Origin: a virus
Reading direction: 5' to 3' (one strand)
Length of the DNA: 42,872 nucleotides
IMG/VR virus record: IMGVR_UViG_3300045988_175311
Span: 1-42,872 of that record
The position numbers were made by a program, and so were the translations under genes. Positions 5,575-31,921 of this stretch are shown here, one piece after another (within the stretch, counting starts at the first letter, position 1; the number at the start of each line of letters is the position of its first letter). Below the pieces are notes generated by a model. It saw only the letters and a list, made by a program, of their open reading frames with translations. It was not told where the DNA came from and did not search any database.

Positions 5575-6177
5575 TCAAATCCTTTCTGTAATCCAATGAA
5601 TGGAGTCGCGTAACTCGCCTTTTTCAATCAATGGATCATCAAATCCTTTGTTTGCAATTGTCAATGGCGCATTTTTGGGATCGCTGAATTCTTTTATAGT
5701 TCGCTTAATATCTTCAACAACGGCATCGCCTAAAACAGGAAAAACGTCCTGATAATTTATCTCTCCAACAAATACTTTAAATGCCAAATCAGCCGCTAGT
5801 TCGGTCCAATTATCAAGGTAGTGGTCAAACGTGTAACGTAAAAAAGGACGCGGTGGAATATGCACCTCATCCTTTAAAATAAACATTATCCGCATACCAT
5901 ATGGCTGCGATTTATCCGGAACCGCCAAAACATGATTGTGCGGTGGCTTTGGTCGAAAAAGATTAGCAATCTCTCCGGGTTTACGCCCTTTGGCTTCTTT
6001 AGTTGGAATTGTTAGATATGCTTTATTCTTAGGCTTTATATCAGCGCCATATTCATTAACTAAAGCAATCATGTTTAAGCGCTGATTAGTCCAGGGCACC
6101 CCAATGGATAATCTGACACTTTGCAACTTTTCCAGCTGTTCAATACCACTGGTTAAATGATTAAAGTCTTCTGTCAT
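5575..6177 (-). CDS. Head-tail adaptor or head-closure protein (putative)
   Basis: The ATG at 6177 overlaps the upstream TGA (ATGA coupling). Position after the connector gene. Confidence 0.5.
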   Translation of the reverse strand: MTEDFNHLTSGIEQLEKLQSVRLSIGVPWTNQRLNMIALVNEYGADIKPKNKAYLTIPTKEAKGRKPGEIANLFRPKPPHNHVLAVPDKSQPYGMRIMFILKDEVHIPPRPFLRYTFDHYLDNWTELAADLAFKVFVGEINYQDVFPVLGDAVVEDIKRTIKEFSDPKNAPLTIANKGFDDPLIEKGELRDSIHWITERI

Positions 6178-6515
6178 TCTGTCCACACGGCTCCCAGACT
6201 GTCTGAAACACCATAATCATCGACTATTTGGTTATATTCTTGTAAGTATGGATCAACACCATTGAAGTTAACCATTGTTTGAGTATTGCCAAAAGTGGAG
6301 GCAGACTGGACACCACCATAGTTCATAAACCAGTCTGCATACAATAAATGACGCGCCCAAGCGATAATTCCCCTAGCTAACGCGTCATCACTAATTTGAT
6401 CATGCTGAGCTTTTGCGATTGCATCATTAGTCCTTTCGGTAATATGGTCATCACTGAAACTTTGAAAAATTTTATAATCACTTTTCACATCAACAATTGT
6501 GGGTGTTTCAGCCAT
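6174..6515 (-). CDS. Head-tail connector (gp6-like, putative)
   Basis: 113 aa, RBS AGGAGG, immediately after the major capsid gene. Confidence 0.55.
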   Translation of the reverse strand: MAETPTIVDVKSDYKIFQSFSDDHITERTNDAIAKAQHDQISDDALARGIIAWARHLLYADWFMNYGGVQSASTFGNTQTMVNFNGVDPYLQEYNQIVDDYGVSDSLGAVWTE

Positions 6516-6528
6516 CGCTGATTACCTC

Positions 6529-7608
6529 CTATTTACCAGTTCCAGATCCGCTAGTTGATGAGCCAGAACCGCTGGTTGATGAACCTGAGGCTTTAGATTT
6601 AGGTGAATTAATAGTTGGGACAACATAATCAGTTCCAACTTTAAAACCATATTTAACTAATTGAATGTTACGTGGATCATAGGATACTTGGAATAACGGC
6701 TTAGTTCCTGCTGCCAAGTCAGCTAAATAAGTGTCGGGCTTAGTTTGAGTCAAGTCAACATCTGTTCCGGCAACGTGGCAAGTAACTACTCGTTTCTGAG
6801 TAATGGCTACCATGCCACCCTTTTGAAATTCGTCACGCTGAACAACTAGGCCATTAGTCGGAGTAGCAGTTGCATAATCAATGGCTCCAGGGCCGAAGAT
6901 GAGTGCATAAGTAGTTCCATCAGAAGCAACCGGAATGCTATCATCTTGAACGATGCTCATACCTTGATAAGTGGCAATTGGAGTAGCTGCTCCAGCAGGT
7001 TGCAGATATTCAATCAATTGTTGTTCGCGCATTTCTGAATAGGCTGCTGAGTTAACAACTAATGTCGATAAGGTGTTATCCATTACATCACCCATGCGGG
7101 CAAGTGCCTTAACAAAGTCCGCAGCAGATAATTCCTTCTCAGAACCAACACCGTAAGACTTTGCAGTTGCAATATCTGTGTTATTGAAAGTTGCTTTAAC
7201 AGTATCCAGCAAAAGCTTTGTATCTTGGCGAGTCCACCAGTTACCAAAACGATTGGCAATCTGCTGTTGGGTACTTGCACCAGAAATTAAATCTCCCCAG
7301 TCAGTATTACCGAATGACTTGAATTGATACATTTTAATGCCGTATTCCATAGCAGAATCAACACCATTAGTTTGAATATCGTTAGTATCATTCCACTCGT
7401 CAGCGTCACCGCTTAAATCATTCATTGCAGGGATCTCAACCGTTCGTCCCGGTTGAAGCAATCGGCCACCTAATACTGGGTCATTTTTCAAGACACCAGA
7501 TTGAACAAAGCGGTTAGTTTGAGTATTTTGACGATAGATCCAGTCCAAAAAAACTTTTGGTTCAATTAAATTACTAAAATTCGTAGGGTTTCCGTTAATT
7601 ACGGTCAT
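6529..7608 (-). CDS. Major capsid protein
   Basis: 359 aa, RBS GGAGGTG, follows the scaffold gene. The C-terminus ends in a Ser/Gly-rich repeat, SGSSTSGSGSSTSGSGTGK. Confidence 0.8.
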   Translation of the reverse strand: MTVINGNPTNFSNLIEPKVFLDWIYRQNTQTNRFVQSGVLKNDPVLGGRLLQPGRTVEIPAMNDLSGDADEWNDTNDIQTNGVDSAMEYGIKMYQFKSFGNTDWGDLISGASTQQQIANRFGNWWTRQDTKLLLDTVKATFNNTDIATAKSYGVGSEKELSAADFVKALARMGDVMDNTLSTLVVNSAAYSEMREQQLIEYLQPAGAATPIATYQGMSIVQDDSIPVASDGTTYALIFGPGAIDYATATPTNGLVVQRDEFQKGGMVAITQKRVVTCHVAGTDVDLTQTKPDTYLADLAAGTKPLFQVSYDPRNIQLVKYGFKVGTDYVVPTINSPKSKASGSSTSGSGSSTSGSGTGK

Positions 7609-23407: not shown

Positions 23408-23707
23408 TTAACTACTCGCTTCTTTATCTTTCTCTTGGATGTGTAATTCGTTGTTTACATTTTGGACAGGAAAAAGATATTCACTAGTGGTATTTAACGC
23501 TTCCGCTAATCTGTTACTAAGATAGGCAGACGGGACTTGCTTACCACGCTCCAAATTGCTGATATATGGGCGGGTTAAGCCAATCCGTTTAGCAAGTTCT
23601 TCTTGCGATATATCAACAGCTAAGCGTGCTTTTCGGATGTTGTTGTTAGCTTCTTTGATCTTCAATGTTTTCATCTCCTTCTCATCTACAAATACATTGT
23701 ACAACAT
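23408..23707 (-). CDS. Cro-like XRE-family HTH regulator (exact start uncertain)
   Basis: ISQEELAKRIGLTRPYISNLERGKQVP. The gene is divergent from the repressor. Confidence 0.7.
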   Translation of the reverse strand: MLYNVFVDEKEMKTLKIKEANNNIRKARLAVDISQEELAKRIGLTRPYISNLERGKQVPSAYLSNRLAEALNTTSEYLFPVQNVNNELHIQEKDKEASS

Positions 23708-23722
23708 GAATTACTTGATGTA
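23694..23722 (-). promoter_or_regulatory. Early lytic promoter candidate
   Basis: Minus strand has TTTACA (23722-23717), a 17-nt spacer, and TACAAT (23699-23694), upstream of the Cro-like gene. Confidence 0.5.
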
Positions 23723-23792
23723 AACATTAAAATACACTTTTTTTATATATTTTTTGTATACAATGAATTACAATAATTTTGGAGGTGCTTCA

Positions 23793-24512
23793 ATGGATAA
23801 AAATAAGAATCAATTGGGGAACTATCTTAAAAGTTTGCGTGGAAACTTATCCTATCGAGAGGTTGCCAAACGTACTGGAGATCGGATTAGCCACAGTGCA
23901 GTCGCACAAGCAGAAAAAGGAATTAACACACGTGGGAAGCCTTACGTTCCGTCACCAGAAACTCTTAAAGAATTAGCTGGCGTCTATCATGTCAGCTTTG
24001 ACGATTTAATGATGCGAGCAGGCTATCTAATTAATCCTACAAACGTTAGGACTCATCCAACATCGGATGGCGCCAAGGTTACAGCAGACGTTGGGTTTGA
24101 ATTAGCCAAGCAAAGCATCCCTGTTTACGGCACGATTCACGCTGGCGAGCCAACATTTGCCGATCAATATATCATTGGAGAAACGCCAATTACTGATAAG
24201 ATCATTGATGACTATGGCAAGGACAATTTGTTTGCACTTCAGGTTAAAGGCGACAGTATGAGTCGAGCTGTCCTGCCAGGCTATGTTGCCGTGTTTTCAA
24301 AAGACGCTAACATTGAGAATGGTGATATTGTTGCCGTGTTAATTGATGGTGATGAGGCAGCCATTAAGCGTTTCAGGAAAACATCACGTGCGGTCATGTT
24401 TGAACCGGATTCTTTTAACCCGATTTATCAACCAATTATTTTTGCCAGAGATCAGGATCAAGATTACAGGATTTTGGGAAAATTCATTTATGCAACATCA
24501 ATGCCAATTTAG
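23793..24512 (+). CDS. CI-like repressor (XRE HTH plus S24/LexA-type autopeptidase domain)
   Basis: The ATG at 23793 follows GGAGGTG. HTH segment: LSYREVAKRTGDRISHSAVAQAEKG. The C-terminal half contains LQVKGDSMSRAV...AIKRF. Confidence 0.85.
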   Translation: MDKNKNQLGNYLKSLRGNLSYREVAKRTGDRISHSAVAQAEKGINTRGKPYVPSPETLKELAGVYHVSFDDLMMRAGYLINPTNVRTHPTSDGAKVTADVGFELAKQSIPVYGTIHAGEPTFADQYIIGETPITDKIIDDYGKDNLFALQVKGDSMSRAVLPGYVAVFSKDANIENGDIVAVLIDGDEAAIKRFRKTSRAVMFEPDSFNPIYQPIIFARDQDQDYRILGKFIYATSMPI

Positions 24513-24524
24513 GAAGTAATTATT

Positions 24525-25628
24525 ATGAACAAGATTCTGAATCATCTAATCAAAGCTATCGCTGATTTTATAAGGTTTACTGTTTCAATTTTGCTACTCA
24601 TCTTTTTTGAAATAAGTATTGGAGCGCTATTTAATACTGACGGTGAAATTGGAACATTTATCGGTATATTAATCATTTCTGTAGGATCTATTGTGGCTGC
24701 ATACTATGTATTGCCACCCAAGGCGCGCTTTCTAAAACGACTGATTCCGCATGTTTTAAAGCCAACCAAATTTAAATATGGTAAAGATGTCTTGTATAGC
24801 TTTCCTTCAAATAAGGGTAATTTACCTCAGCTCAAGCTAATCAATCTGAACTCACAAATTTCTGAAGCTCAAAATGATTTGCGGAGCCTGAACTTTCAAG
24901 AAGAAAATTTAGAACAACAAATTGATTTTGATAAACAAGATCATTTGACTTGGACTAATAAAGTTAAGAATTTGCAGTCCGAATATAACGTTTTGCAGTC
25001 AAAATATGATGATATAAAAGCCACTCTTTCGAATAACAAACAGGAAGTCAAATTTGGTGGCAAACTAATGACTGTTCAGGAAGCAATGAAACAACGGGAT
25101 CAAATAATTCGGGACTTTGACGACATTAAATCCAGAAAACAGCAAATTGAATCTTTTTATTCAGGAAAAACATTTCAGGGCTATCTGAAATATCGTGTAA
25201 CTTTAGAGCTGAATAAAATTGACGATCTAACTGGATTAGAATTTGAAAGCTATATTACCAATTTGTTGAAAAAACTTGGATTTAAAGATGCAAAGTCCAC
25301 TGTTGCTACAGGTGATAATGGAATTGATGTCTTAGCTCATAATGGTGACACCTATTATGGAATTCAGTGTAAATTGTATTCTAATCCAGTGGGTAATCAG
25401 GCGGTACAACAGGCTTATGCCGGTGGATCATATTACAAAACTGACAAGAATATAGTTGTTTCTAATAATTATTTCACTCCCAGTGCATTGCAAGCTGCAG
25501 ACACTATGGATGTTGACCTATGGGATAGAGATAAATTAGCTGAACTTATCCTTGATACATTCAAGGCGTTTCAAGAAATTCCCGTTTCTAGTCAACCACA
25601 ACATATTGAATCAAAAGAGATGGTTTAA
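24525..25628 (+). CDS. Membrane-anchored coiled-coil protein with a C-terminal Mrr-type restriction-endonuclease domain
   Basis: Two N-terminal hydrophobic helices and a Q/N/K-rich heptad region. The C-terminus reads LEFESYITNLLKKLGF...GDNGIDVLAH...GIQCKLY...VVSNNYFT. Confidence 0.7.
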   Translation: MNKILNHLIKAIADFIRFTVSILLLIFFEISIGALFNTDGEIGTFIGILIISVGSIVAAYYVLPPKARFLKRLIPHVLKPTKFKYGKDVLYSFPSNKGNLPQLKLINLNSQISEAQNDLRSLNFQEENLEQQIDFDKQDHLTWTNKVKNLQSEYNVLQSKYDDIKATLSNNKQEVKFGGKLMTVQEAMKQRDQIIRDFDDIKSRKQQIESFYSGKTFQGYLKYRVTLELNKIDDLTGLEFESYITNLLKKLGFKDAKSTVATGDNGIDVLAHNGDTYYGIQCKLYSNPVGNQAVQQAYAGGSYYKTDKNIVVSNNYFTPSALQAADTMDVDLWDRDKLAELILDTFKAFQEIPVSSQPQHIESKEMV

Positions 25629-25886
25629 ATGGCAATTGTCTTGTTATTAATTTTGGGAATAGCATGTATTTGGATGTTCTTCACTCGTTGGGTATGGTGG
25701 ATTTTAGGGATTATGATTTTGATTAACATATTTACTTGGTGGGATAAGTTAATTGACTTTTTGTTTGGTAATCTCGTGACGGGTTTAGGAATTGTGTTCT
25801 TTCTCATTCTGGTCATTATCAACGAAATTCCCGCTTGCTTTCATCACCCCACCTACTTGCAAAGATTTAGAGCACGCAATAATTAG
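25629..25886 (+). CDS. Small multi-pass membrane protein
   Basis: The ATG directly abuts the upstream TAA. There are three Trp-rich hydrophobic segments. Confidence 0.5.
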   Translation: MAIVLLLILGIACIWMFFTRWVWWILGIMILINIFTWWDKLIDFLFGNLVTGLGIVFFLILVIINEIPACFHHPTYLQRFRARNN

Positions 25887-25897
25887 GAGGCAGCATT

Positions 25898-26209
25898 ATG
25901 GCGCTATTTGAAACTAAGGAACAAAAAGAAGAAAAGCTCCAGCAAAAGGTTGACGCATTTTTAACCGATCATGGACTAAATGATCTTAACCCAGAGGACA
26001 ATCAATTGGTTAAAAATGCCATGAGTCAAAACGGAGTGATGGATGCGTTAGTTTATGGGTTTGGTGCCAGAATGCACGGCTCGGACGCTGAAAACATGAT
26101 GATTAATAATCTGCAAACCATTGTGGAGCAAAATTGGCTTTTGATTAAGCAAAACGATACTTTGCAAAAACAAAATGCTGAAATCATCAACAATTTAAAA
26201 AATAAATAA
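25898..26209 (+). CDS. Hypothetical soluble protein (103 aa)
   Basis: RBS AGGAGG. It is the last gene of the repressor-side cargo block. Confidence 0.5.
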   Translation: MALFETKEQKEEKLQQKVDAFLTDHGLNDLNPEDNQLVKNAMSQNGVMDALVYGFGARMHGSDAENMMINNLQTIVEQNWLLIKQNDTLQKQNAEIINNLKNK

Positions 26210-26213
26210 CCTT

Positions 26214-26236
26214 GGCCCTTTCGGGGGCTTTTGTTT
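26214..26236 (+). terminator. Weak terminator-like hairpin
   Basis: GCCC-TTTCGG-GGGC followed by TTTTGTTT; the stem is only 4-5 bp. Confidence 0.3.
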
Positions 26237-26278
26237 AACTCACATAACGAACATATGTGCGAAAGGAGATGAGAGTCT

Positions 26279-27442
26279 ATGGCATCCATCTACAAGCTTA
26301 ATAAGTCATGGGCAGCAAGATTATCCTACCAAGAGAATGGAAAGCGTAAGCGGCTTAATAAAGCAGGATTTTCTACCAAGTCAGCTGCACGTGCATGGGC
26401 AACCACTCAGGAAGCGGAGCTACAGAAGCACGGTGGCAATCACCTTTCCAAGCAAAGCATCATAGAATACTATCAAGAATGGTTTGACACTTTCAAAAAA
26501 CCAAGGGTTGCTTCGGCAACACAACGGCGCTACATGGCAACAAAAGAAGTAATTGTGCGTTATTTTGGTAATCGGTCTTTAGACTCGATTGACTATGCTG
26601 ATTATCAAGAATTTATCAACAAGCTTGCTAGCAGCCATAAATTAGGCACGGTAAAAAAAGTGCATGGACAAGTTCGGGCAGCTATCCGCAAGGCATTTCA
26701 AATGGGCAAAATTTCAGCAGATTTTACCGACGGTGCCGAGATATCCGGAAAACCGGGTAAAAAACCTGAAGACAAATTTCTTGACCTAGATGATATGCAA
26801 CGACTTCTGGAATACTGTCTTATGAATATCAAATTCATCACTGATGTTGATCGAGCTATGTATATATGTGCCCTTCTTACAGGTATGCGCTATGAAGAGG
26901 TTGCTGGACTAACATGGGATTGTGTCAACTTTGAAAAACACACGCTGAAAGTTAATAAAGCGTGGGATCACGTGGAACATAAATTTGGACCAACTAAAAA
27001 CGAATCATCCATGCGGACAATCAAGATCGACAGCCAGTTAGTGTTGATGCTCAAGGAATGGCGTCAAATTGTTAACGAATACATGAACCGACGGCATAGG
27101 TCGAATCCTAATAATTTTGTCTTTCTTGCTCGCAGTCGTGGAGCCGTTAGCCCGGAAACAGTTAACCATTTGCTACGAAAAGTATATCAGCAAGGCATTA
27201 TCTCTAAACCAATCACATTTCACGGTCTCAGGCACACACACGCAAGCTATCTGATATCAAGTGGTATCTCTACCCATTACATTTCTGAACGCTTAGGACA
27301 TAAAAATACGATCGTGACAGAAACCACGTATGCACATCTTTTTAAGAAAAAAAGGATTGAGGAAGAAAACCGAGCAATGAAAATGCTCGAAAATTTAGAT
27401 AAAAGAAAGCAAAAAACATCGTCTGAAATTCATCAAAAATAG
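26279..27442 (+). CDS. int: Tyrosine site-specific integrase
   Basis: RBS AAAGGAG. The C-terminal catalytic region reads HGLRHTHASYL...LGH...TYAH. Confidence 0.9.
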   Translation: MASIYKLNKSWAARLSYQENGKRKRLNKAGFSTKSAARAWATTQEAELQKHGGNHLSKQSIIEYYQEWFDTFKKPRVASATQRRYMATKEVIVRYFGNRSLDSIDYADYQEFINKLASSHKLGTVKKVHGQVRAAIRKAFQMGKISADFTDGAEISGKPGKKPEDKFLDLDDMQRLLEYCLMNIKFITDVDRAMYICALLTGMRYEEVAGLTWDCVNFEKHTLKVNKAWDHVEHKFGPTKNESSMRTIKIDSQLVLMLKEWRQIVNEYMNRRHRSNPNNFVFLARSRGAVSPETVNHLLRKVYQQGIISKPITFHGLRHTHASYLISSGISTHYISERLGHKNTIVTETTYAHLFKKKRIEEENRAMKMLENLDKRKQKTSSEIHQK

Positions 27443-27983: not shown

Positions 27984-29016
27984 GGCAAATTACAAGTTTA
28001 ATCCGAACAAGCCCGGAATCTTTCAATGGCAGTCTGTTGATGATGTATTTTTAATGGTCGTTGATTAATTAGTTCAAGTGCTGCTAGGATCTCATCAGTC
28101 GTTACTTGGCTAAAATTGGTCTTTTTCGGGAAGAACCAGCGTAACCGTCTATTAAAATATTCATTGGAACCTCGCTCCCATGGTGAATATGGATGGCAAA
28201 AATAAACTTTGATCTGATAATCCTGTTCTAAGGCCTGATAATTGGCAAACTCTTTACCATGATCAACAGTAATGGATTTTACTTGGGGACCGAAGGCCCC
28301 CATAAACTTGCCAAAGGCGGTGTTTAGAGCCTTAGCCGTTCTATTAGGGGCTTTGATGGCCCATAGAAGTCGGGTCTTACGTTCTACGAATGTAACCAGA
28401 CATGATCGTGACTCACTTCGACTAGAAAGCACCGTATCTACTTCCCAATGACCAAAAGCTAACCGTTGATTAACAGTTGTTGGCCGTTGTTCGATGGAAG
28501 TCCCACTTGTAAATTTCCCACGATTTTCGCTCACTCGGTGCTGGCGGACATTCCGATTGGGTAGATCAGTCAATTTGAAGGGGAGCCAGCCACGATTAAG
28601 CCAATTATAAATTGACGCAGTGCTCAAGTTATAAGCGGCCGCAATGGTTTCTGGTGACCAGGTTAATCGTAAGTGATTGGTAATTAAAGTCGCTAATGCT
28701 GCCGTCAGCATCGAACGACGACCGCAATTCCGCCTTTTGCGATCTGCATCTTGCTGAGCTAATTCTGGATCATAAGGTTTAACCCGGTCCAACTCATAGC
28801 TAATCGTAGCTTTGGCGACGCCTAAGGCGTCAGCCATTACTTGGTAAGATTTATTCCCCTCATTGACCAGTTGTGCTAGTGCGCCACGTTGAAAACGTGA
28901 TAAAGTAGATGTACCCAAAGTAATCACTCCCTATATTGGTTGGAATTAGCTACTACCATTGTAAGTGATTGCTTTGGGCTTTTTAATTTCTGTTCGGATT
29001 AATTATAGAATTTGCC
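27984..29016 (-). mobile_element. IS30-family insertion sequence (1,033 bp)
   Basis: Imperfect terminal inverted repeats: GGCAAATTACAAGTTTAATCCGAACA versus GGCAAATTCTATAATTAATCCGAACA (21 of 26 positions). The dinucleotide TC flanks both ends (27982-27983 and 29017-29018). A single transposase ORF fills the element. Confidence 0.85.
27998..28927 (-). CDS. IS30-family DDE transposase
   Basis: N-terminal HTH, and the rve-type core ...HWEVDTV...ITVDHGKEF...PWERGSNE. Confidence 0.85.
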   Translation of the reverse strand: MITLGTSTLSRFQRGALAQLVNEGNKSYQVMADALGVAKATISYELDRVKPYDPELAQQDADRKRRNCGRRSMLTAALATLITNHLRLTWSPETIAAAYNLSTASIYNWLNRGWLPFKLTDLPNRNVRQHRVSENRGKFTSGTSIEQRPTTVNQRLAFGHWEVDTVLSSRSESRSCLVTFVERKTRLLWAIKAPNRTAKALNTAFGKFMGAFGPQVKSITVDHGKEFANYQALEQDYQIKVYFCHPYSPWERGSNEYFNRRLRWFFPKKTNFSQVTTDEILAALELINQRPLKIHHQQTAIERFRACSD

Positions 29017-29191: not shown

Positions 29192-29899
29192 CTATGGCAT
29201 ATTCAAGCATAAATGATTGGGAATTTCTCTTAGATTCTGGTCACCAAAATAATAAGAATTTTCAATTCTGTTGGCTAATATATCGGCGCTTTGAATTAAA
29301 TAGTTCATGGATGAATCACAATACTGTACCGAGACTATAACTTTCCCCTCCATCACCGGATCGTGGAACGTCCCGTAATCATAGTTTGAAATGCCTTCGG
29401 CCAGTTCTTCATAAATAGACTCTTTAAGAGTATAGACACCGTTAGTAGCCGTTGCTTGCTCATCCAAATAGATATGAATTTTCAAATCATCTTTGACATC
29501 TATAATATTTTTATTGATATAATTCAAAATTTCGCGTTTAATGATACGTTTTAAAACATAATCCTTATATCGATGGATAGAATTTTTTGATCCTAATATG
29601 TGATCATAAACTTTAGAGATATCAACAGCAACAGAAAAGCTTTGTTCATATTTAAATACTTGGAATAACTTATTCTTATACTTCTGCTTTAACTTTGAAG
29701 CTTTAATCTCACCGTCAATATGAGTTGCATTTTTAACAATATGTACCATATTACGGTATCTTCGCTTAGCATCTTCCATTTTTATTTTAGACAAGAAAGA
29801 ATAGCCTGCATAAATAAAATCCTTGCAGGGATCATTTTTGTTTAAAACACCTGAATCATCGACAAAGAAATATATTGACTTTTGGCTTGATCTGTTCAA
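29192..29899 (-). CDS. DUF3800-like protein (moron cargo)
   Basis: The TTG start lies 7 nt after GAGGA. N-terminal motif FFVDDSG and C-terminal motif LIQSADILANRI resemble the DUF3800 signature. The gene looks AT-rich by eye. Confidence 0.5.
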   Translation of the reverse strand: MNRSSQKSIYFFVDDSGVLNKNDPCKDFIYAGYSFLSKIKMEDAKRRYRNMVHIVKNATHIDGEIKASKLKQKYKNKLFQVFKYEQSFSVAVDISKVYDHILGSKNSIHRYKDYVLKRIIKREILNYINKNIIDVKDDLKIHIYLDEQATATNGVYTLKESIYEELAEGISNYDYGTFHDPVMEGKVIVSVQYCDSSMNYLIQSADILANRIENSYYFGDQNLREIPNHLCLNMP

Positions 29900-30023: not shown

Positions 30024-30848
30024 TTATTTAATTTCTTTGATCAATTCTACATAATCCTTGTTGGCCGTTAAATAGCCAACTTGCGTTTTGAGTGAGTAGA
30101 TGTCACCGTCTTTAACTGCGACTCCATAAAAACGGCTGCCCTTGGCCAAACGCACATACCGTTTGTTTTTATCGCCTTTTAGCGGGAGCTTATTATAAGC
30201 ATGAATCAAATCCGTTTTAACTTCATACAGACCCTTAGCGGTGTAATACTCTGGTTTAATCGGGGTGGCTGATTTGCCGTTTGACTTCAATAAATTTTTG
30301 AAATCATAGCTGGCATCAAGCGACATTCCTTTAAACCGATCAGTGTATTGCCAGATATCCACATGATTAATTCCTGGTTGTGAAGTGCCGTAAGCCGCTA
30401 CCCATAACTTAGCATGCTTGGACAACGTTGCTTGATTAATCCGGCCTTCTTTAAACCATGAAGTGGAACCGTAAATCATTAAGTTATGGTAGCCATTGGC
30501 ATAGAGATATCCTAGGAACTTATTGATGCCGGCAGTACATTTTTGCGGTAAATCTGGGGCTTCCACATCAAGCGCCAGCCAAGTTGTTTTGTCTAACCCC
30601 ATTTTCTTAACTTTATCGAGGAAATATTGAGCTTCATTAGTGCCATAATGCCAAAAATGATACACACCAACAACACCATAGGCCTTATAAGCATTGGCAA
30701 TTTGATTGGCAGCCTTGGGTGAAGTATATTTAACACCTTCACTTAGCTTGACCATTGCACCAGAAACATCGTAAGATTTTAATCCGTTAAAAAAAGAAAT
30801 GGAATCGGGTTGGTATGCGGAAGTGTCAACAACAATTGAATGTGCCAT
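30024..30848 (-). CDS. Endolysin: GH25 muramidase with a C-terminal cell-wall-binding domain
   Basis: VVDTSAYQP...GVYHFW...DVE... in the N-terminal half. It immediately follows the holin gene. Confidence 0.85.
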   Translation of the reverse strand: MAHSIVVDTSAYQPDSISFFNGLKSYDVSGAMVKLSEGVKYTSPKAANQIANAYKAYGVVGVYHFWHYGTNEAQYFLDKVKKMGLDKTTWLALDVEAPDLPQKCTAGINKFLGYLYANGYHNLMIYGSTSWFKEGRINQATLSKHAKLWVAAYGTSQPGINHVDIWQYTDRFKGMSLDASYDFKNLLKSNGKSATPIKPEYYTAKGLYEVKTDLIHAYNKLPLKGDKNKRYVRLAKGSRFYGVAVKDGDIYSLKTQVGYLTANKDYVELIKEIK

Positions 30849-31366
30849 TATTTCTCAACCTCACCTTCAAGTTGCTTAATGTCACTTGCACCGTCACTTT
30901 CCACAGTATCGGTGCTATCTGATTTTGAAGCATCTGCTGTGGCATTCGTGTTGTCGGTTGTTGGTTGAGCATCGGATTCAGGCTTATCTTTAACAACGTC
31001 AGAACTAGGAGTAGTAATGACAGGGGCAACATTTTTACCTGCACTCTTGTACTCTTGATAAATGCTTTCAATGAATCCTTTAACCAATCCTGATTTAGCC
31101 CACGTGTAACCACGATCACTAGCAAAAGTTAATGCTTCGTTAAGCACGGCATCAAAACGGTCTTGCTTACTTAACGCTGCTACCTGGGCATATCGGGCAA
31201 CCAGTCCTTCAATTGCGGTTAAAAGGGATTTCTCTTGGGCGGTCTTAGCGTGTGCTTGAGCAAGTGGCAAAGCGGCTTTCCAAACGGCTAGAATAAAAGC
31301 AATTCCTGCAGCCAAAACGCCAGTTGATTGTAAATAGTTAAAAATCTTAGTTAAAATTGCAATCAT
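30848..31366 (-). CDS. Holin (LL-H-type, putative)
   Basis: N-terminal transmembrane segment VLAAGIAFILAVW with a long hydrophilic tail. RBS AGGAGG. It directly precedes the endolysin. Confidence 0.6.
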   Translation of the reverse strand: MIAILTKIFNYLQSTGVLAAGIAFILAVWKAALPLAQAHAKTAQEKSLLTAIEGLVARYAQVAALSKQDRFDAVLNEALTFASDRGYTWAKSGLVKGFIESIYQEYKSAGKNVAPVITTPSSDVVKDKPESDAQPTTDNTNATADASKSDSTDTVESDGASDIKQLEGEVEK

Positions 31367-31594: not shown

Positions 31595-31921
31595 CTAATG
31601 AATAAAGTGCATTAATTGTTGTAGAATCAAATAAATTACGGAACTGGACCCGATCGCAATGGTAACCACCTTCCACAAGTTCTGACGATTGATAACTTCC
31701 ATCTCATTTTTATGATTTTCACTTTTCTCGTCTCCACGGATGACTGCTTCCAAGATACGGTTGTTTTGTTCCCGCAAGTATTTGTTGCTTTCATCGACAC
31801 TTTTTAGCGTGTCGGTCATTTTATTGTTAAGATCAGTAATCCGACGTTCGTGATCCGATAGTTCTTTGCCATGTTTCAATAACATTTGATGATCCTGATC
31901 GCTTAGTGGCAACGGCCTCAC
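31595..31921 (-). CDS. XhlA-like coiled-coil protein with a C-terminal membrane anchor (start may be the ATG at 31885)
   Basis: Coiled-coil followed by LWKVVTIAIGSSSVIYLILQQL. Position upstream of the holin, as in PBSX xhlA. Confidence 0.5.
   Translation of the reverse strand: MRPLPLSDQDHQMLLKHGKELSDHERRITDLNNKMTDTLKSVDESNKYLREQNNRILEAVIRGDEKSENHKNEMEVINRQNLWKVVTIAIGSSSVIYLILQQLMHFIH

Follow-up and report, generated by a model that had tools for sequence, protein, structure and literature searches.

The stretch of DNA analyzed here, referred to below as the window, comprises positions 1 to 42,872 of the IMG/VR virus record IMGVR_UViG_3300045988_175311 (42,872 nucleotides, nt). In its lysogeny region, directly behind a CI-like repressor gene, lies a gene for a protein of 367 amino acids (aa) that is predicted to combine a membrane anchor, a helical stalk and a nuclease domain of the Mrr_cat type. 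This gene, together with the two small genes that separate it from a tyrosine integrase, is the subject of the present report. The features of the region are as follows.

23408..23707, minus strand: Cro-like regulator, divergent from the repressor operon (Pfam HTH_3, E=4e-16)
23793..24512, plus strand: CI-like repressor with HTH_3 and Peptidase_S24 domains, first gene of the lysogenic operon (Peptidase_S24, E=7e-22)
24525-25628, plus strand: gene for the 367-aa, predicted membrane-tethered Mrr_cat nuclease (Pfam, structure model, Foldseek)
25629-25886, plus strand: gene for an 85-aa Trp-rich small membrane protein (open reading frame and hydropathy)
25898-26209, plus strand: gene for a 103-aa acidic helical protein, phrog_16443 (PHROGs, E=1e-19)
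26210..26239, plus strand: intrinsic-terminator-like element, with its stem-loop and T-run at 26210-26229, directly 3' of the stop codon of the 103-aa gene (sequence)
26279..27442, plus strand: tyrosine integrase (Pfam Phage_integrase, E=7e-28)

A first-pass annotation, made from the letters of the window, had placed three plus-strand open reading frames (ORFs) between repressor and integrase, with gaps of 12, 0 and 11 nt after the repressor, the nuclease and the 85-aa gene, and the ORF coordinates agree with this description. All three are preceded by a plausible Shine-Dalgarno sequence, which for the nuclease gene is AGGAAG, 8 nt upstream, and the ATG of the 85-aa gene abuts the nuclease stop codon. 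The ribosome-binding sites, the tight spacing and the terminator suggest that these genes form a single operon with the repressor. Because the terminator follows the stop codon of the 103-aa gene, the repressor, nuclease, 85-aa and 103-aa genes appear to share one lysogenic transcript, with the integrase transcribed separately. Co-transcription with the repressor would mean that the nuclease is made in the lysogen.

The 367-aa protein is made up of the following parts.

24576..24713, plus strand: transmembrane (TM) hairpin, residues 18-36 and 45-63 (Kyte-Doolittle peaks of 2.3; model helices 2-37 and 42-62, with a predicted local distance difference test score, pLDDT, of ~90)
24714..24824, plus strand: basic disordered juxtamembrane linker, residues 64-100 (pLDDT <50 at residues 81-100; Lys/Arg-rich)
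24825..25223, plus strand: helical coiled-coil-like stalk, residues 101-233, with a beta-hairpin at 174-183 (model and heptad score)
25224..25565, plus strand: Mrr_cat PD-(D/E)xK nuclease domain, residues 234-347 (Pfam, alignment, Foldseek)

The AlphaFold2 model of the whole protein has a mean pLDDT of 83.7. Both N-terminal TM helices of the first-pass annotation were predicted again. The outer loop between them is acidic and only 8 residues long, and the segment downstream of the second helix carries 8 K/R vs 1 D/E. By the positive-inside rule the topology is thus predicted to be N-in, C-in, which would place the stalk and an intact active site in the cytoplasm. The heptad-like stretch that had been put at about 150 aa does correspond to a helical stalk, but its length is corrected to ~130 aa, it is interrupted by the beta-hairpin, and it is preceded by the basic linker, which the L. 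hilgardii homologue lacks. In the model, the stalk consists of a long helix (101-168), the hairpin and two further helices (184-233); its length differs between homologues, which are proteins of 332-400 aa.

Assignment of the C-terminus to an Mrr_cat-type fold proved sound. Pfam matches Mrr_cat at residues 232-342 (E=4e-24), the model shows a compact alpha/beta domain at 237-347, and a Foldseek search with the C-terminal domain returned AF1548 (1y88), MspJI, AspBHI and Hjc, all of them PD-(D/E)xK nucleases. The first-pass annotation had also proposed that the catalytic residues be inspected in an alignment, and in one of 27 sequences E241, D264, D268, Q281 and K283 are invariant, from which an active nuclease is predicted. 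A reading of the domain as the inactive nuclease NA-iREase1 was rejected because Mrr_cat scores far higher and the catalytic residues are all invariant. A search of NCBIfam yielded coiled-coil noise only.

The strength of the Mrr_cat match, the presence of the modification-dependent enzymes MspJI and AspBHI among the structural neighbors, and a weak PADLOC match to mREase_IV are what one would expect of a conventional modification-dependent type IV restriction enzyme of the Mrr family that is associated with the membrane by chance. However, the mREase_IV match is limited to the catalytic core, and residues 1-233 consist of the TM hairpin, linker and helices rather than an Mrr_N, SRA or other modification-reading domain, so we consider a type IV enzyme of this kind very improbable.

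Comparison with sibling Lentilactobacillus prophages defined the unit in which the nuclease gene moves.

24512..25675, plus strand: exchangeable cassette, comprising the nuclease gene and the first 16 codons of the small membrane gene (blastn breakpoints)

In blastn alignments with siblings L107-L110, homology stops at the repressor stop codon (24510/24511) and begins again with codon 16 of the small gene, at 25676; with L095 and L101 it resumes at 25877 and 25694, respectively. The slot of the nuclease is occupied in L107, L108 and L109 (3267-4004) by a gene for a 245-aa Ion_trans K+ channel with a TVGYGD filter and a C-terminal coiled coil, directly behind which, with a 4-nt overlap, lies an 84-aa gene. 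An internal deletion in L110 (1480-1587) has left a 35-aa remnant of the channel, with the 84-aa and 103-aa genes retained. In other L. parabuchneri prophages the nuclease gives way to a 234-aa membrane protein unrelated to it, again with the 103-aa gene directly upstream of the integrase. Prophages of type C keep the 103-aa gene, but L101 has only a truncated 85-aa gene and L095-L097 have none. Given the exact breakpoints and the replacement by unrelated cargo, the nuclease gene is an exchangeable cassette. The alternative cargo, K+ channel and 234-aa TM protein, likewise consists of membrane proteins, and the lysogen-linked channel is itself a candidate effector of exclusion or abortive infection. 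The exact swap of nuclease and K+ channel amounts to a natural experiment on interchangeable membrane-level defenses.

Full-length homologues of the nuclease are few. A protein search found them at 54% identity in L. hilgardii, at 40% in a metagenomic prophage and at 37% in two Secundilactobacillus species, and a genome scan added homologues from Apilactobacillus and Ligilactobacillus. Within this clade the nuclease domain is 48-82% identical, while the anchor, linker and stalk are only 8-53% identical. In all prophage contexts the nuclease gene comes directly after a repressor or an ImmA-type Peptidase_M78 gene, and the genes downstream vary. In L. hilgardii they include MscL and a beta-lactamase-like gene, whereas the metagenomic phage has a gene for a DUF4428/SHOCT protein; the Secundilactobacillus prophage remnants encode secreted proteins there, and Ligilactobacillus membrane proteins and lipoproteins. 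The L. hilgardii prophage (L001-L004; L002 4459-4836 and 5477-6409) encodes MscL, several small membrane proteins and a Beta-lactamase2-like protein between nuclease and integrase. The Roseburia phage Jekyll, which belongs with the wider class described below, has the same arrangement: Xre, an annotated putative toxin, nuclease, HslV-like protease, integrase. The gene after the nuclease in the metagenomic prophage (L010 4293-5168) has matches to DUF4428, PH_gly_zipper and SHOCT; PH and DUF4428 are N-terminal membrane-targeting modules in those homologues of the membrane-bound nuclease SNIPE that lack a TM segment (bioRxiv 10.1101/2025.11.03.685801).

The two small genes do not follow the nuclease through these genomes. 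The 85-aa protein is Trp-rich (6 Trp), as first described, but the number of its hydrophobic segments, previously given as three, is two to three. Its family is limited to Lentilactobacillus; there are weak homologues in L. hilgardii and in the L. brevis phage Lb, whose lysogeny module encodes an 85-aa-like protein without a nuclease or channel. The 103-aa protein is soluble, as had been stated, in that it has no TM segment; it is acidic (15 D/E vs 10 K/R) and predicted at low confidence to be all-helical (AlphaFold pLDDT 60). Its gene stands directly upstream of the integrase whichever cargo is present, and the two form one block of 93% DNA identity (blastn) that excludes the cargo. A tblastn search with the 103-aa protein against phages gave no match. 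We considered whether it might be an excisionase, which is unlikely for an acidic protein without a helix-turn-helix (HTH) match encoded on the lysogenic transcript. Elsewhere, a 56%-identical homologue is encoded directly upstream of an Ltp-family lipoprotein gene (L098 5001-5878; L099; L100), Ltp being a known superinfection-exclusion family, and in L098 the homologue of the 103-aa gene adjoins a type I-E CRISPR-Cas locus.

Nuclease, 85-aa gene and 103-aa gene occur as a trio only in near-identical L. parabuchneri/L. buchneri prophages. In tblastn searches, no homologue of the 103-aa protein was found in nuclease-homologue loci outside the Lentilactobacillus siblings, and the only homologue of the 85-aa protein in those loci is a weak one in L. 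hilgardii, ~360 nt downstream of the nuclease with one ORF between. Both genes are missing from the loci of the metagenomic prophage, Secundilactobacillus, Ligilactobacillus, Apilactobacillus, a metagenome-assembled genome of Clostridia and the Roseburia phage Jekyll. The earlier proposals that the three genes make up one system, and that the nuclease is paired with the small membrane protein, are thus not borne out: the cassette is swapped without them, co-occurrence, whose absence the first-pass annotation had itself named as grounds for rejection, is not conserved, nearly all distant homologues of the nuclease do without the 85-aa gene, and phage Lb has the small protein alone. On this distribution, the 85-aa and 103-aa genes are best described as neighboring genes of the phage backbone, probably with separate roles, not specific to the nuclease.

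A version of the partnership idea nevertheless deserves consideration. Effector and small gene are tightly coupled: in the window the gap between them is 0 nt, and where the effector is Ion_trans they overlap by 4 nt. The small gene also takes its first 16 codons from whichever cassette is present. The Trp-rich 84/85-aa protein, perhaps with the 103-aa protein, could accordingly be a shared sensor, regulator or immunity partner of swappable effectors, the nuclease version of which would cut at the entry site. A tethered Mrr nuclease, a K+ channel and another membrane protein could then be alternative effectors in a prophage-borne form of membrane surveillance. Loss of the channel from L110 with retention of the 84-aa and 103-aa genes is what would be expected of an immunity partner, and the weak small-protein homologue in L. 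hilgardii is consistent with the same idea. On the other hand, the idea fits poorly with the type C prophages, which keep the 103-aa gene and lack an intact 85-aa gene, with the many nuclease homologues that have neither small gene, with the lone small protein of phage Lb, and with the DNA homology block that joins the 103-aa gene to the integrase rather than to the cargo. We regard such a modular system as improbable.

What does recur is the nuclease itself. Its domain belongs to a subfamily with the motif GDxGIDVLA...QCKLYSxPVGNxAVQE, for which a profile search of 1.84 billion cluster representatives gave 18,554 matches, 745 of them at E<=1e-30. At least one hydrophobic segment above the Kyte-Doolittle threshold was present in 98 of the 145 top representatives read, a threshold passed by just 2 of the 49 other ORFs of the phage in the window, both holin-like. 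Relatives were found in 130 species-representative genomes (TM segment in about 66 of the 78 proteins analyzed) and in 212 IMG/VR viral contigs (at least one TM segment in 70 of the 79 loci analyzed). Across the QCKLYSxPVGN subfamily, about 70-90% of members have a predicted membrane anchor. When the viral-contig loci were grouped at about 70% identity into 31 clusters, an HTH or ImmA gene lay no more than three genes upstream in 25 of them and a tyrosine integrase no more than three genes downstream in 17. Pfam matches among 117 neighbors of the viral loci included 27 to HTH_3, 12 to Phage_integrase, 7 to Peptidase_S24, 7 to Peptidase_M78 and 4 to serine recombinases. We delineated the class as proteins with a QCKLYSxPVGN-type Mrr_cat domain and at least one TM segment, encoded directly downstream of a repressor or ImmA gene on the same strand. 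All three features are found in the window, and on these grounds the 367-aa gene is placed in a widespread, uncharacterised class of repressor-linked, membrane-tethered Mrr nucleases.

The part between anchor and nuclease is variable in this class, ranging from linkers of about 10 residues to stalks of ~250 residues, with coiled-coil stalks recurring (P0190, P0136, P0193, P0099) and other variants carrying TM2, zinc-ribbon or FtsK_gamma modules. Several relatives are TM-less or have an FtsK_gamma winged-helix DNA-binding module (P0062, P0063, L126, L129, L145, L159, L172, L183), and two of this group contain tandem Mrr_cat domains. In one metagenomic protein of 366 aa, P0006, an ImmA/IrrE Peptidase_M78 domain and TM segments are naturally fused to an Mrr_cat domain of this subfamily; the arrangement may reflect a link of the nuclease to the anti-repressor protease or simply a fusion of adjacent genes. 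Neighbors of subfamily members outside Firmicutes showed no conserved partner or defense island, and 5 of 114 were resolvases.

The explanation that we favor, tentatively and at a little below an even chance, is that the 367-aa protein is a single-gene, lysogen-expressed, membrane-tethered nuclease for superinfection exclusion that cuts incoming DNA. The gene would be a self-sufficient moron co-transcribed with the prophage repressor. The TM hairpin would anchor the protein on the cytoplasmic side of the membrane, and the flexible basic linker and ~130-aa helical stalk, which probably dimerises, would hold the nuclease in the cytoplasm close by. We infer that foreign DNA would be cleaved while emerging through the membrane during phage injection, and that the chromosome and the replicating genome of the induced prophage would be spared mainly by their location, as in SNIPE. 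The diversifying N-terminal and stalk portion would then set localisation or phage specificity.

Several points weigh against this explanation. The tether is long (~40 disordered plus ~130 helical residues), so location alone may not protect the nucleoid, in which case the nuclease would require additional control. RNA, too, can be a substrate of domains of the Mrr_cat type. The sole tested representative of PDC-S02, a PADLOC candidate with which the protein has the nuclease domain alone in common, failed to protect E. coli B against T4, T5 or T7. In addition, the neighborhoods of the nuclease subfamily outside Firmicutes are heterogeneous, and three Apilactobacillus species (L017, L018, L019, ~5850-6920) encode a 311-aa orthologue, with TM, stalk and Mrr_cat, in a locus without prophage genes. 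There the context is conserved and housekeeping in character: GtrA, PMT_2 mannosyltransferase, GT2, the orthologue, CNNM and NrdI. This Apilactobacillus gene is either a domesticated or an ancestral cellular copy.

Because of the Apilactobacillus context and the heterogeneous neighborhoods, a cellular role is conceivable, and the protein might be a housekeeping membrane nuclease of DNA uptake, repair or segregation, a participant in the lysis-lysogeny switch with a link to ImmA and the repressor, or a toxin that stabilises the prophage. The conservation of one chromosomal context in three species, the ImmA-TM-Mrr_cat fusion and the FtsK_gamma DNA-binding domains of some relatives suit a function other than defense. 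However, the nuclease is strain-variable and exchangeable for unrelated cargo, and is therefore not essential to the phage switch; there is no conserved antitoxin-like partner, and the position is the classic moron slot. A role of this kind appears distinctly unlikely.

A more serious competitor to direct cutting at the entry site, although we still think it unlikely, is abortive infection. Here the tether would keep the nuclease inactive or sequestered until a phage-induced perturbation of the membrane or a phage protein activates or frees it, and degradation of host and phage nucleic acid would kill the cell. The architecture of membrane anchor plus cytoplasmic nuclease fits this scheme equally well, and the length of the tether argues for regulated activity. 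Abortive infection is the mode of action of AbiP and PdpSau (PMC10127798), plasmid or prophage proteins that join a membrane anchor to a cytoplasmic DNA-binding domain, and the interchangeable K+ channel would make a plausible depolarising effector. Against it, no sensor domain is evident and the outer loop is just 8 residues long, a constitutively made abortive-infection nuclease risks killing the host when its own prophage is induced, and SNIPE, the sole characterised membrane-bound nuclease, acts directly.

If the exclusion nuclease that we favor is real, it would be a common repressor-linked device of the temperate phages of Firmicutes, including those of gut Clostridia and food lactobacilli. 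Hundreds of phage genes now labeled 'restriction endonuclease' would thereby acquire a function. It would also show why a non-specific nuclease on a prophage need not interfere with that prophage's own induction, and bear on the phage resistance of dairy and silage strains of Lentilactobacillus.

The remainder of the window is in keeping with a phage origin. Positions 1-55 are identical to 42818-42872, a 55-nt terminal direct repeat that is the assembly overlap of a circular molecule, and the genes elsewhere include those for a portal, a baseplate protein, a tail lysozyme, a GH25 endolysin and other phage proteins. The terminal repeat together with these structural and lysis genes identifies the window as the complete circular genome, ~42.8 kb, of a temperate siphophage rather than a segment of a chromosome. 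From a 99%-identical protein, we judge the host to be Lentilactobacillus parabuchneri. Megablast of the lysogeny region against 50,697 GenBank phages gave no match. The repressor ORF as called mechanically opens at TTG 23754; the start is most likely ATG 23793, which has GGAGG upstream. Two GTAyACAATGAATTAC-like copies (23699-23714 and 23757-23772; 13 of 16 bases alike, read by eye) fall inside the 85-nt region separating the divergent cro-like and repressor genes and are probably operators. An IS30-type transposase gene (rve and HTH_38; 27998-28927, minus strand) lies between the integrase and lysis genes, and an IS110-type one (DEDD_Tnp_IS110 and Transposase_20; 38770-39969, minus strand) within the tail/baseplate region. 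A gene for a 235-aa DUF3800 protein (29192-29899, minus strand) adjoins the GH25 endolysin gene (30024-30848) and probably marks a second moron site at the opposite end of the prophage. The sole non-cargo ORFs above the TM threshold, 30848-31366 and 31595-31921 (both minus strand), also adjoin the endolysin gene and are probably holins.

No named defense system in PADLOC matches the 367-aa protein over its full length, consistent with the failure of the first-pass annotation to recognise one, and no characterised TM-anchored Mrr_cat nuclease of prophages was found in the literature. A 2026 review gives Zorya, Kiwa and SNIPE as the membrane-localised systems that target DNA (PMC12904381). Among PADLOC models, the nuclease domain fits the C-terminal Mrr-like nuclease of ZorD best (E=2e-19, and 1e-22 for relatives), with the match confined to the nuclease part, model positions 937-1061 of 1071. 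The likeness to Zorya extends to the concept of a membrane complex with a long helical element that places an Mrr-type nuclease near the site of DNA entry (PMC12904381). The locus differs, however, in having neither ZorA/ZorB, ZorC nor the Snf2 helicase of ZorD, and a single 367-aa protein instead; no MotA, ExbB or OmpA match was found among the neighboring repressor, 85-aa, 103-aa and integrase proteins. Enzymes of the Mrr/type IV group (PF04471) have a homologous catalytic domain with the D...QxK motif, but here a membrane anchor and stalk stand in place of the Mrr_N winged helix, which Pfam did not detect. PDC-S02 is likewise a single gene of similar size with a C-terminal Mrr-like nuclease (domain match E=1e-13), but the alignment covers positions 191-314 of 334 here, or ~142-317 when ten relatives are included, and the N-terminal half never aligns. 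Membership in PDC-S02, ZorD, LmuA or mREase_IV was rejected because only the nuclease core aligns in PADLOC, and membership in Lamassu because the weak LmuA/LmuB matches fall on the nuclease core and coiled coil only and there is no ATPase head.

Among proteins of Gram-positive hosts, AbiP of Lactococcus and PdpSau of S. aureus prophages resemble the 367-aa protein in being membrane-anchored anti-phage proteins with a cytoplasmic part that binds nucleic acid (PMC10127798). PdpSau is a prophage moron, and its gene adjoins the lysis genes and is not behind the repressor (PMC10127798). Compared by their descriptions, both differ in having a single TM segment, an OB-fold-like domain and no nuclease, and in acting by abortive infection with depolarisation; Pfam gave no OB-fold match in the 367-aa protein. 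With Sie2009 and Ltp, the classical superinfection-exclusion proteins of phages of lactic acid bacteria, it has in common the slot between repressor and integrase and the membrane location, but there is no homology, and Pfam detects no Ltp domain here. Proteins of the Sie2009/Ltp kind have no enzymatic domain and act at the outer face of the membrane, where they keep DNA from entering.

The closest functional analogue is SNIPE (Saxton et al., bioRxiv 10.1101/2025.11.03.685801), in which a GIY-YIG nuclease anchored by a TM segment breaks up the DNA of lambda as it is injected. Both are single polypeptides with an N-terminal membrane anchor, an elongated cytoplasmic middle and a C-terminal nuclease, and both are conserved most strongly in the nuclease domain, with an N-terminal region that is highly variable. 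They have no sequence or fold relationship: SNIPE combines one TM segment with a globular DUF4041 domain and a GIY-YIG nuclease, whereas the 367-aa protein has a predicted TM hairpin, a coiled-coil-like stalk and an Mrr_cat PD-(D/E)xK domain, with no match to DUF4041 (Pfam, E<=0.1) and no GIY-YIG domain. SNIPE came from defense screens in E. coli, whereas the present family lies behind the repressor in temperate phages of Firmicutes. SNIPE becomes toxic once its TM segment is removed, and an induced prophage is unharmed by it (bioRxiv 10.1101/2025.11.03.685801). Such logic would suit a prophage-borne gene, because resident DNA, including that of the induced prophage, is spared. The 367-aa nuclease is probably a convergent analogue of SNIPE. 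If it works as proposed, location has been recruited at least two times in evolution to tell incoming from resident DNA, by unrelated nuclease folds: GIY-YIG in SNIPE and PD-(D/E)xK here.

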